Of a stretch of DNA of 64,000 nt, positions 33,210 to 35,407 are shown piece after piece. Source of the DNA: Trichormus sp. ATA11-4-KO1 (GTDB lineage: Bacteria; Cyanobacteriota; Cyanobacteriia; Cyanobacteriales; Nostocaceae); assembly GCA_019358915.1 (NCBI GenBank), contig JAHHIM010000022.1, positions 1-64,000 on the forward strand, read 5' to 3'. Position 1 is the first letter of the stretch. Each line of letters starts with the position of its first letter. A model generated the notes under the pieces. The model made no database searches, had not been told where the DNA came from, and was given only the letters and a program-made list of their open reading frames with translations. A program made the translations under genes and the position numbers.

Positions 33210-33506
33210 TTAAGCTAATTCTACTTCTTCAAAGTGTTCAACAGTGGGAAATGGCTCATAGAAATGATGCAGCAATTTTTTCCACTCTTGATACTCAGCA
33301 GAGCCTCTAAATCCCACAGTATGAGCTTCTAAACTCTCCCATTTGACAAGTAACAAATATTTACTTTGAGCTTCTATGCATCGATGAAGTTCATGTGATA
33401 TATATCCGTTAGTTCTTGAGATAATACTAGAAGCTTTTTTAAAAGCAGATTCAAAATCATCTTCCAGTCCAGGTTTGATATTCAGCATCACTGCCTCTAA
33501 AATCAT
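33210..33506 (-). CDS. Antibiotic biosynthesis monooxygenase (ABM) family protein
   Basis: IKPG...FE, GYISHELHR, VKWESLEAH..GFRGS pattern. Confidence 0.88.
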   Translation of the reverse strand: MILEAVMLNIKPGLEDDFESAFKKASSIISRTNGYISHELHRCIEAQSKYLLLVKWESLEAHTVGFRGSAEYQEWKKLLHHFYEPFPTVEHFEEVELA

Positions 33507-33641
33507 AAACTTTTTCTTGAGTCCAGTTGATGTGATTTACTATAATGCGATCGCTGCTCTCTTAACTCAACTAAAAATAATTCTTGAGTAAATAGATAAT
33601 TACAGTACAAAATGGCGCAGTTCTGGATGAATACATCTGCT

Positions 33642-33672
33642 TTGACAAATTCTGAAGCAGGGGTTTTATAAT
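33642..33672 (+). promoter_or_regulatory. Sigma70-type promoter of the mini-array cassette
   Basis: Perfect TTGACA (33642-33647) and TATAAT (33667-33672) with 19-nt spacing; CTGCTT/AAGCAG dyad at 33637-33660 overlaps the -35 box. Confidence 0.65.
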
Positions 33673-33674
33673 GA

Positions 33675-33789
33675 AGATTGTCAAGATATAATCCCTATTA
33701 GGGATTGAAACTCCTAAAATTTGTAGAACGACTAACCAATTTCCACTAGGAAATTAACAAATTCAAAAATCCCCACAAGGGATTGAAAC
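33675..33789 (+). CRISPR. Orphan degenerate CRISPR mini-array (2 repeats, one 41-nt spacer)
   Basis: R1 ...AATCCCTATTAGGGATTGAAAC ends at 33711; R2 ATTAACAAATTCAAAAATCCCCACAAGGGATTGAAAC at 33753-33789; both keep the AATCCC/GGGATT stem and ATTGAAAC 3' end typical of 37-nt cyanobacterial (type I-D-associated) repeats; no cas genes in window. Confidence 0.8.
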
Positions 33790-33790
33790 T

Positions 33791-34099
33791 ATGCTAAGTG
33801 TCACAAAACCAAACTTTGGATTACGGATAAGGAACAGCATCGCCCCCAAAGAAAACGAGCAAATGAGGGCGATCGTTTATAGTATGGACTTGCTAATCCC
33901 TGGTTTATATGTGTGGCTCCCAGGATTTAATATTCGGATTGGCGGAAGTATTCCTGATGATTTACCTTACAAGTATCCTGGTAAAATTCACAGCCCGGCT
34001 GGCATTGCTTTAGTATTACCTGGATACAAGATATTGACTACGTATCAGGGAACCTATGACCCTAGAGAAGCACCAAATACAAGGAATACCTCAATTTAA
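33791..34099 (+). CDS. Hypothetical protein directly downstream of CRISPR-like repeat
   Basis: 102-aa ORF with ATG 1 nt after R2; alternative start at 33863; no recognised family. Confidence 0.65.
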   Translation: MLSVTKPNFGLRIRNSIAPKENEQMRAIVYSMDLLIPGLYVWLPGFNIRIGGSIPDDLPYKYPGKIHSPAGIALVLPGYKILTTYQGTYDPREAPNTRNTSI

Positions 34100-34283
34100 A
34101 TGTAAGGTCATAGACTCCAGTCAATTTGAAGAAATGATGCAAAAAGCTGGTTACTTCATAGCGGGAAGTGCTTCAGCACAAGGTAACAGGATTAAAGTTT
34201 GGTGGATGCATCTTGAATATCAAAGAGTTGAATCAATATACAGTCAAGACAAAACAAAAGTTATAACGGCGTATCACGTTTAG
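34056..34283 (+). CDS. Small hypothetical protein, possibly RNase-toxin-like
   Basis: 75-aa ORF overlapping the upstream ORF by 44 nt; helix then beta-strand pattern ending KVITAYHV; function is inference. Confidence 0.65.
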   Translation: MTLEKHQIQGIPQFKCKVIDSSQFEEMMQKAGYFIAGSASAQGNRIKVWWMHLEYQRVESIYSQDKTKVITAYHV

Positions 34284-34319
34284 TACTGCTTCAATCTTTT
34301 ATTTGAATGCAATGTATTT

Positions 34320-34340
34320 GGTGGGCAAATGCCCACCCTA
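34320..34340. repeat. Partial REP-like palindrome GGTGGGCAAATGCCCACC
   Basis: Matches the core of 23173-23197; lies between convergent genes. Confidence 0.7.
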
Positions 34341-34353
34341 GTTTTAACTAAAC

Positions 34354-35268
34354 TTAAACAGACTGAAACTTAATTACGCCTTTGTCGAAAATCTTTTTAT
34401 CAGTGCCCATTGTGCTGACTTCAATTCTATCGGGATATACTTCATAAGCAGCAAAAGCCAACCTTTCAGCAGCATGTTCTGTCCACTCAGAACGCCCCAC
34501 AGGACGAACACCTGCACCACTACCAGTTGTTAAATAAGTTGTGCCTTCAATAGCACGAGTACGCTCATAATTATGGTCATGGCCATTGATATAAAGTTGC
34601 ACATTGTACTTTTTAAATAAAGGTACAAAGCGTTTAATTAATGCTTGGCTAACTCCATAGTGTCCCGATGAATAAAACGGGTCATGTCCAAATACTACTT
34701 TCCACGGTGCATCACTGCGGCTTAATTCTTGGTCTAACCAAACTGCTTGTTTCTCCCAATCAGCATTACGGTTAGTATCTAAAGCAAAAAATTGTACTGC
34801 GTCACGGCGAAATGTGTAATAACGTCCCTTCATGTTAAAGCCGGGATATTTGACTTGTGGGTCACCATTCTCAGTGCGAATGTCATGATTTCCTAAACAA
34901 GCGTGAAATTTGACATTCTGAGACAGTAAATTTTCATAGGGACGCTCAAAAACGGCACCTATTTTTTCAATTTCGCCATCGTTGTAAATATTATCTCCAG
35001 CTAAAACTACTAAATCATAGGGATTTCGCTGGTGATGAAAATTCATCGCCTCAGCCACAGCATATTGTCCTTTAGCACCAGTTCCTGTATCTGCAACAGA
35101 AACAAAACGCAATAGCAAGTCATTTTTGGCTGGGGTGGCGGCTATAACTGCTGAATCAGCAACATTAGCAATTTGGCCATTTTGTCGAGTTAGTGTCCAA
35201 CCGAGAAGTCCTGTACCAAGAGTACCAAGACTACCTAAAAATAGAAATTGACGGCGTTTCAGGTTCAT
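34354..35268 (-). CDS. Tat-exported metallophosphoesterase (purple acid phosphatase-like)
   Basis: KRRQFL twin-arginine signal; ADTG, GDNIY, GNHD, GHDH motifs. Confidence 0.93.
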   Translation of the reverse strand: MNLKRRQFLFLGSLGTLGTGLLGWTLTRQNGQIANVADSAVIAATPAKNDLLLRFVSVADTGTGAKGQYAVAEAMNFHHQRNPYDLVVLAGDNIYNDGEIEKIGAVFERPYENLLSQNVKFHACLGNHDIRTENGDPQVKYPGFNMKGRYYTFRRDAVQFFALDTNRNADWEKQAVWLDQELSRSDAPWKVVFGHDPFYSSGHYGVSQALIKRFVPLFKKYNVQLYINGHDHNYERTRAIEGTTYLTTGSGAGVRPVGRSEWTEHAAERLAFAAYEVYPDRIEVSTMGTDKKIFDKGVIKFQSV

Positions 35269-35407
35269 AAACTCACCAAAACTCAATAACTAGTCAGTTT
35301 AGCCGAAGAAGCAATGAGCATTGAAATGATACATTAGGGCAAAAGAGGCAGCAGCAGCAAAAATGCTAGTTATTTGTCTTTGATTCGCTGCTTTTGGTGA
35401 AAGTTCC

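Follow-up and report, generated by a model that had tools for sequence, protein, structure and literature searches.

Within the first 64,000 nucleotides (nt) of contig JAHHIM010000022.1 of the cyanobacterium Trichormus sp. ATA11-4-KO1 (the window hereafter), two overlapping open reading frames, ORF1 and ORF2, are preceded by two degenerate copies, R1 and R2, of a CRISPR repeat. The analysis of this locus makes it very likely that the 116 nt running from R1 to R2 form the leader of an ORF1/ORF2 operon, and that this leader derives from CRISPR repeats and has been retained by selection. The leader is not an adaptive array, and it is most probably not a guide-RNA gene. The fuller proposal, in which the repeat-derived leader of the messenger RNA (mRNA) is also cut or bound by Cas6 just before the AUG, is in our estimate about as liable to be wrong as right. 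The original prediction for this region had described a CRISPR mini-array with a single spacer, fused to a toxin-like gene pair. The layout that it gave (R1, R2, 1 nt, the ATG, the overlapping frames and both flanking genes) is as the sequence reads.

Derivation of the repeats from the CRISPR arrays of the host

R1 (33675..33711, plus strand) and the terminal repeat R2 (33753..33789, plus strand) each consist of an AATCCC / GGGATT hairpin followed by ATTGAAAC. In R1, the hairpin lies at 33690-33706, with a stem of 7 bp, and the ATTGAAAC handle at 33704-33711; in R2, the hairpin lies at 33768-33784, with a stem of 6 bp, and the handle at 33782-33789. These are the features of a Cas6 substrate, and stems of 6-8 pairs with 8-nt tags are given for Nostocales repeats in the matching passages of a preprint on orphan arrays (10.1101/2020.04.14.041012). 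The similarity between the two repeats extends over 23-nt copies (33690-33712 and 33768-33790) that are 87% alike and lie 78 nt apart, and in their 5′ halves the repeats resemble neither each other nor any of the genome's array repeats. That both repeats keep the stem and the ATTGAAAC end while their 5′ halves differ had been pointed out in the original prediction and was confirmed by the sequence and by a pattern count, in which AATCCC-N5-GGGATTGAAAC had 56 matches in the genome and its backwards control had none. The prediction had also proposed a comparison with the genome's real repeats. This showed that the 3′ 22 nt of R1 are letter-identical to 35 repeats elsewhere in the genome, distributed on contigs C11 (14), C18 (9) and C73 (11), with a solo copy on C14. 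The Rfam family CRISPR-DR5 matched R1 (36.3 bits, E value 0.0016) and R2 (27.4 bits, E value 0.16) on the plus strand, both below the gathering score of 40. The repeats derive from the host's own CRISPR repeats.

The 41 nt between R1 and R2 (33712..33752, plus strand) had been taken for a spacer. They are not a variable spacer: the stretch is conserved in loci L061-L063 and L066/L067, unlike strain-variable spacers, and a fold prediction places in it a third hairpin (33738-33755) that reaches into R2. When the stretch was compared with its own genome, the longest match was 14 nt, which is the chance level (E value 0.5), and no self-target rose above chance. An adaptive CRISPR array was considered for this locus and rejected on three grounds: R1 and R2 share only 23 nt (87%), the Rfam scores are below gathering, and the 41-nt stretch behaves as an invariant sequence across relatives.

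Conservation of the leader

The strength of selection on the leader can be appreciated by comparing this genome with locus L066, two sequences whose ORF1 copies have a synonymous divergence (dS) of 1.17, so that synonymous sites are saturated. Over the 116 nt of the leader, 105 positions are identical, against 114 of the 200 nt immediately upstream. In R2, the stem, the handle and the linker are unchanged and four of the five loop bases differ. The conserved part goes beyond the repeat-like sequence and includes the non-repeat 5′ half of R1 with its TATAAT, the linker and the third hairpin. By this comparison the leader is under strong selection, and an inert remnant is therefore very unlikely.

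Conservation of pairing was also found in the stem of the terminal unit. Among 46 distinct sequences, 84.8% of the cells were paired and 11 cells had changed on both sides, a result reached by none of 500 shuffles, although relatedness inflates these counts. When the stem partner was slid by 1-3 columns, pairing fell to 23-69%.

Fusion of repeat units to the operon in relatives

Relatives of ORF1 were found in 160 of 389 genomes of the family and in 90 of 401 genomes of the order. A total of 119 cassette loci (L031-L089 and L097-L156) were examined, of which 117 could be scored and 2 had no callable start. The test applied was strict: it demanded a perfect stem of at least 4 pairs, at least 2 of them G-C, ending 6-20 nt before the start, and, within the final 20 nt, a word differing from ATTGAAAC by no more than 2 changes. 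It was passed by 63 of the 117 loci. On an ORF1 tree of 114 distinct rows, built by a quick search and with an unresolved backbone, the passing rows sit in four clades (8/11, 12/18, 2/3 and 40/45, that is 62 of 77 rows), and no row passes in the other clades (0/37). The answer to the question that the original prediction had raised, whether homologues keep upstream repeats, is thus yes for most rows of these four clades and, by this test, no elsewhere.

The terminal unit and the start codon are separated by 1 nt in the clade of the window, where a single T (33790) lies between the end of R2 (33789) and the ORF1 ATG (33791), by 2-4 nt in a second clade and by 7-8 nt in loci of the Nostoc-type clade. 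Three large clades, with ORF1 identities of 60-75%, have retained the hairpin together with the ATTGAAAC-like tail. The last two units stand about 12-20 nt apart in sister clades. The number of units varies among loci, and the last unit and its distance to the ATG are fixed. In L066/L067, for instance, a 59-nt insertion in the leader duplicates an R1-type unit and brings the total to three, and L033 carries four tandem units separated by gaps of 12-20 nt. In the clade of the window (L061-L067) only 1-3 repeat-like units are present.

In the Nostoc-type clade the units are connected with CRISPR arrays. The order there is an array leader, one or more full-length repeats, a fixed 16-nt stretch, the terminal short unit and the ATG. 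Of 46 Nostoc-type loci, 18 have one or more spacings of 65-80 nt, each corresponding to an ordinary spacer, directly upstream in the same orientation as the genes, and up to five such spacings per locus were counted within the 750-1450 nt of upstream sequence examined. Because ordinary spacers are directly upstream, the cassette stands at the far (trailer) end of the array in these loci. The arrays have typical leaders, and their spacers differ between close genomes. The original prediction had held that a long ordinary array at this place in relatives would make the locus a decayed remnant. Ordinary arrays do occur in the sister clade, in those 18 of 46 loci, and the conservation of the leader shows that it is no mere decayed remnant.

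A different situation was observed in other families of the order. The cassettes at L048, L049, L055, L057, L059 and L060 lack repeats and have another conserved upstream block, with a -10-like TAAAAT and a palindrome, GGTTAC...GTAACC, located about 70 nt before the ATG. The palindrome may be an operator for autoregulation.

Possible transcription of the leader and the operon

The promoter of the original prediction (33642..33672, plus strand; TTGACA at 33642-47 and TATAAT at 33667-72) has a spacing of 19 nt; the promoter scan, which allowed 16-18 nt, did not call it, and the region is not conserved in L062/L063. The scan returned another candidate, TTTATA-16-TATAAT (33665..33692, plus strand; 10/12 matches), whose -10 at 33687-92 falls inside the 5′ half of R1, and this -10 and its flank are conserved in L061-L063 and L066/L067. 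From this candidate promoter, transcription is predicted to start near 33699. The number of promoter-like sites found by the scan (4) shows no excess over that expected in shuffled sequence (4.3). Downstream of ORF2, a terminator-like hairpin with 7 pairs, 6 of them G-C, followed by a T-run (34320..34347, plus strand), would mark the end of the operon.

A box of this kind recurs in the units. Cassette-linked units carry TATAAT, GATAAT, TAAAAT or TACAAT just before the stem, where true repeats have, in register, AATAAT (C11/C73) or TAAAAT (C60). A weak -10-like box may be present in repeats of this CRISPR family.

Metatranscriptome contigs were available from a relative about 94% identical, in 4 runs from 3 studies. 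In these assembled contigs, for which DNA carry-over is possible and whose resolution stops short of exact ends, strand and level, R2, ORF1 and ORF2 lie on one piece that extends 81-481 nt beyond ORF2. The share of words in the matching runs is small (0.04-0.05). With the possibility of DNA carry-over, the joining of the three elements in RNA libraries agrees with the idea of one transcript that had been put forward in the original prediction. The 5′ stops of the contigs fall at about 33713-33716 in three runs and about 33699 in one run. They fit a transcript boundary at R1, produced either by a start about 7 nt past the TATAAT at 33687-92 or by a Cas6 cut at 33703/33704.

The ORF1 and ORF2 genes

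ORF1 (33791..34099, plus strand) encodes a conserved cyanobacterial protein of 102 amino acids with no assigned family, and ORF2 (34056..34283, plus strand) a protein of 75 amino acids. The 44-nt overlap between them is conserved, and ORF2 follows ORF1 in 25 of the first 30 loci. The ratio of nonsynonymous to synonymous substitution rates (dN/dS) is 0.10-0.14 for ORF1; the ORF2 values scatter more at short distance, between 0.34 and 1.16, being based on 11-20 differences. To judge from the sequences, ORF1 and ORF2 are a real, conserved pair of overlapping genes. Hosts of the cassette include Nostoc, Anabaena, Dolichospermum, Aphanizomenon, Scytonema, Calothrix, Fischerella and Chlorogloeopsis, among others, and the only name given in the source annotations is 'hypothetical protein'. 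Scanned against Pfam, NCBIfam, PHROGs and PADLOC, neither ORF1 nor ORF2 matched any family, toxin, antitoxin and defence families included, and the toxin-like character that had been attributed to the pair is a matter of layout only.

Structure prediction was more confident for ORF2 than for ORF1. The AlphaFold2 model of ORF2, a helix followed by a four-strand meander, has a predicted local distance difference test score (pLDDT) of 94.8, against 65.7 for the model of ORF1, which has one helix and four strands. Profile searches against PDB sequences gave nothing useful for either protein (best E value 0.16), and Foldseek at E ≤ 0.001 found no match for either model. In the VIA wide fold search, ORF2 reached a best Z score of 5.6 against generic beta-blades, with many of its weak matches being propeller blades, and the best Z score of ORF1 was only 2.6. 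A family profile of ORF2 matches long proteins that combine a nucleoside triphosphatase (NTPase) and WD40 repeats, through residues 41-72 and in 4-6 stretches per protein; Pfam gives no WD40 match on ORF2 itself, and the blade-like fold matches have Z scores of about 5. ORF2 thus looks like a single WD40-like blade, which is a lead and not a membership. All leads for ORF2 in the ESM Atlas stayed below 0.9 (DUF4258, found in 19% of one cluster, and DUF3781), and ORF1 had none. Two other resemblances were discarded: that of ORF1 to Hfq, which consisted of weak Foldseek rows with a template modelling (TM) score of about 0.2, and one to HicB, suggested by a C-terminal extension of protein P0117, which had no Pfam match. 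The products of the two genes are probably partners. A predicted ORF1+ORF2 complex was weak and was not used as evidence (median 0.41, from runs of 0.41, 0.68 and 0.00, with a best control of 0.00; the runs agree in at least 3% of contacts and the pLDDT of the partners is at least 67).

The genomic context of the cassette differs between genomes, some of which contain several copies. Two copies are on plasmids, the copy in the window is chromosomal, as in most genomes, and no paralogue of the cassette was found in its own genome. A search of a phage collection gave no matches. In the window, the flanks are an ABM-domain gene (33210-33506, minus strand) and a metallophosphoesterase gene (34354-35286, minus strand). 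At L063, the cassette unit directly follows what appears to be the 3′ end of a transfer RNA (tRNA) gene, about 100-200 nt upstream of R1. The end of a tRNA gene is a site where mobile DNA commonly inserts. The R2/ATG region also has a 17-nt inverted match to the 3′ end of ORF2, which was set aside, as it is not conserved outside L031/L061.

The CRISPR machinery of the host and other repeat-like elements

The genome has the machinery that the original prediction had assumed to act in trans. Contig C1 carries a type I-D operon (cas3′, cas10d, csc2, csc1 and cas6) with a 4-repeat array, a second cas6 is located on C34, a type III cluster of five RAMP (repeat-associated mysterious protein) genes lies on C10, and pieces of cas1 are found at contig ends. 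Matches to Cas6, Cas1 and RAMP families were obtained on C1, C34, C52, C68 and C10. On the contig of the window there was no match to these families in a scan that took in part of the window's reading frames, a result that goes in the direction of the earlier statement that no cas genes are present in the 64 kb and covers it in part. Free-standing arrays are described as normal in Nostocales genomes in the preprint already cited, whose relevant passages also report that Anabaena 7120 has two Cas6 enzymes which process orphan arrays at a distance and that the CRISPR RNAs (crRNAs) begin with 8-nt tags (10.1101/2020.04.14.041012).

Other repeat-like elements are present in the genome. A second mini-array (C1:127862-127962, minus strand; locus L090) has a TTGACA-type promoter and two half-degenerate repeats, with their 3′ 22 nt intact, around a 27-nt stretch. 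Within the type I-D operon, it has cas3′ on one side and the MntA/HepT-cas10d genes on the other, reads antisense toward cas3′ and fits the known I-D mini-arrays between cas3 and cas10d that have been proposed to repress cas10d. A match to its first 11 nt, no better than chance, lies at C1:128033-128043, immediately upstream of the promoter of the mini-array itself. The MntA/HepT pair, a type VII toxin-antitoxin, lies inside the same operon between cas3′ and cas10d (C1:128680-129569; L090:11680-12569). On C14 (28280-28377, minus strand) there is an array stub, with a typical leader, a full repeat, a 22-nt spacer and a second repeat with a mutated handle. Finally, small dispersed non-coding elements at C24:17499, C36:245668, C7:22034, C73:251817, C73:110201 and C21:24651 consist of a hairpin, then GGGATTGAAAC and then a T-run/GC-box/A-run structure, flanked by short tandem heptamer-like repeats. 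They resemble a miniature mobile or dispersed repeat family that has the CRISPR handle word in common with the repeats.

A proposed mechanism and its alternatives

The following mechanism is proposed. The leader would have been built from the trailer repeats of a CRISPR array and kept by selection since then. Transcription would start at a promoter at or inside R1, or, in relatives, from the true array leader, and would yield a single RNA in which hairpin units precede the mRNA. In real repeats, Cas6 of these cyanobacteria would read a hairpin and a ATTGAAAC tail, and R2 has retained both. Judging by the 8-nt tags of Anabaena crRNAs, as given in passages of the preprint (10.1101/2020.04.14.041012), Cas6 would bind or cut at 33781/33782. 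A cut at this position would remove the upstream hairpins and leave 9 nt before the AUG, so that CRISPR RNA processing would govern the translation or the stability of the operon. The 3′ arm of the stem is G-rich and lies where a ribosome-binding stretch would be expected. It would be paired before the cut and absent after it; for this reason either form could be the translated one.

Several observations weigh against this proposal. In the four clades, 15 of 77 rows fail the strict test, most of them being, by eye, imperfect versions of the terminal hairpin and handle, and the covariation counts are, as mentioned above, inflated by relatedness. The handle is relaxed in many loci: it is ATTGAAAT in most Nostoc-type loci, has an extra A in others and is ATTTAGAC or ATCCAAAC in a few. 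Should transcription begin near 33699, R1 would be a piece of promoter and not an RNA hairpin. The RNA-library contigs at the locus give no exact ends, may reflect DNA carry-over and still hold an uncut R2; the cleavage of R2, if there is any, is thus incomplete. As for Cas6 itself, 7 of the 78 genomes with a repeat-type cassette (9%) have no match to TIGR01877, compared with 30 of 389 (7.7%) overall, and there is no enrichment of Cas6 among cassette carriers (71/78 vs 359/389). Five of the seven were re-checked and lack both PF01881 and CRISPR repeats of the R1/R2 type. The terminal unit is intact in four of these five; in the fifth, L141, the hairpin lacks its 5′ arm. Cassette and hairpin are thus retained where no Cas6 is detected. 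An addiction module, killing upon the loss of Cas6, is not favoured, and the dependence of expression on Cas6 that had been suggested originally is weakened in its strict form by these seven genomes, while the presence of Cas6 in the host stands. The Cas6-less genomes have close Cas6-bearing kin with a matching terminal unit, and the loss of Cas6 may for that reason be recent.

These observations give some room to a structured leader that works without Cas6, in which the co-opted hairpins would be a 5′ stabiliser, a translation-tuning structure or a binding site for the products of the operon. The persistence of the cassette in genomes with neither detectable Cas6 nor matching repeats speaks for it, as do the relaxed handles, the fact that the whole leader is conserved beyond its Cas6-type parts, middle hairpin and non-repeat half of R1 included, and the other conserved upstream sequence, with its palindrome, of the repeat-less clades. 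The joint retention of hairpin and ATTGAAAC-like tail in three clades at 60-75% ORF1 identity is harder to account for in this way, as is the attachment of the cassette to live arrays in 18 of 46 loci, and a recent loss may explain the Cas6-less genomes with close Cas6-bearing kin. On balance, we judge a Cas6-independent leader unlikely, though it deserves serious attention. A crRNA-like regulatory guide of the CreA/CreR type, in which R1, the 41 nt and R2 would be processed and direct a type I-D or III complex to a partly matching target, had been suggested originally and is improbable. It would suit a 41-nt stretch flanked by two degenerate repeats with a 3′ handle, in a genome that has Cas6 and effector genes, and such mini-arrays are known, according to the pertinent passages of two reports (preprint 10.1101/2023.03.03.530964; PMC8501985), one of the known kind being present in this genome between cas3′ and cas10d. 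The 41 nt, however, are conserved, fold into their own hairpin and have no genome match longer than 14 nt, a chance level at which a weak seed-only match could have escaped; moreover, the gaps of 12-20 nt in sister clades are too short for a guide, and, in the scan described above, the locus is outside the cas operon, with the Cas6, Cas1, RAMP and I-D genes on other contigs.

The two other explanations are less probable still. An RNA decoy for Cas6 or effector proteins, similar to the RNA anti-CRISPRs (Racrs) and carried by a mobile cassette that dampens host CRISPR, would be in keeping with the tandem repeat-like hairpins (up to four, in L033), the varied context, the copy that adjoins a tRNA gene end and the two plasmid copies; Racrs also mimic repeats as solitary units, as described in the part of the report devoted to them (PMC10651486). 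We nevertheless regard it as very improbable: the phage collection gave no match, the units are linked both with the start codon of a protein operon and with arrays of the host itself, and the cassette is chromosomal in most genomes. That the repeats are inert leftovers of a decayed array beside an unrelated gene pair is the least probable explanation of all and is largely refuted by the conservation of the leader. Array fragmentation is common in multicellular cyanobacteria, as the preprint states in the passages on this subject (10.1101/2020.04.14.041012), relatives have ordinary arrays at this place, and other stubs exist in the genome, on C14 and C1. Against this stand a leader that is identical at 105 of 116 positions at an ORF1 dS of 1.17 while its flanks are unalignable, the covariation of the stem and a distance of 1-8 nt to the ATG that is fixed across 62 rows.

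The repeat-derived leader read by Cas6 can be taken a step further. The cassette could represent a class of genes that is associated with arrays and not with cas genes: a two-protein cargo located at the array trailers of heterocyst-forming cyanobacteria, whose mRNA would be released or tuned by the Cas6 cut. This extension is tentative, and we consider it possible and somewhat doubtful. If it were true, it would provide a natural case of Cas6 maturing a protein-coding mRNA, and the level of the module would report array transcription and Cas6 activity to the cell, with the module as either a safeguard or a helper of the CRISPR pathway.

Relation to known systems and significance

The closest known elements are the CreTA/CreR mini-arrays (PMC8501985; PMC9458426; preprint 10.1101/2023.03.03.530964). 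In the passages of these reports that describe them, they share with the present locus two degenerate repeats that keep the processing-relevant 3′ part, a position beside a small cassette and the idea that gene expression is coupled to the CRISPR machinery. They differ in being located inside cas loci, in acting in trans as guides with a partly matching target and in having a small RNA as the toxin. Here, in contrast, the unit is far from cas genes, the search of its own genome found no target, the last repeat is in the leader of a protein-coding mRNA and the proposed action is in cis. The orphan arrays of Nostocales have in common with this locus the hairpin with an 8-nt tag and genomes with type I-D, type III and two cas6 genes, but they are true arrays with variable spacers, and protein cargo at the trailer is not mentioned in the abstract or the term-matched passages of the preprint (10.1101/2020.04.14.041012). 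RNA anti-CRISPRs are likewise repeat mimics outside arrays, with degenerate flanks, and are presented in the corresponding passages as phage-borne non-coding decoys (PMC10651486), whereas the unit described here lies on the chromosome and is fused to an operon, and the phage collection gave no match to it. With type II toxin-antitoxin pairs, ORF1 and ORF2 share the two small overlapping genes, the patchy spread, the multicopy genomes and the plasmid copies, but they match no toxin, antitoxin or defence family and are similar in layout only. In synthetic biology, engineered Cas6/Csy4 sites in 5′ untranslated regions (UTRs) cut away the upstream RNA. These sites likewise place a Cas6-type hairpin before a coding region, where cleavage resets the 5′ end of the mRNA, and they are a laboratory design. 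Literature searches found no report of a gene module at the trailer end of arrays or of a natural, conserved mRNA cut by Cas6.

CRISPR repeats located outside arrays have so far been known to give rise to guide-like RNAs (CreA, CreR) or to act as decoys (Racr). In this locus, a repeat has apparently been kept as the cis-acting leader of a protein operon, and in many genomes this operon also occupies the far end of live arrays. A single leader, a pair of cas6 genes and a reporter make a simple test system. If Cas6 cuts or binds the leader, CRISPR RNA processing can control ordinary genes, the locus would be a natural counterpart to the engineered Cas6/Csy4 insulators, and ORF1 and ORF2 would belong to a gene family whose function is likely to be linked to the biology of the arrays.

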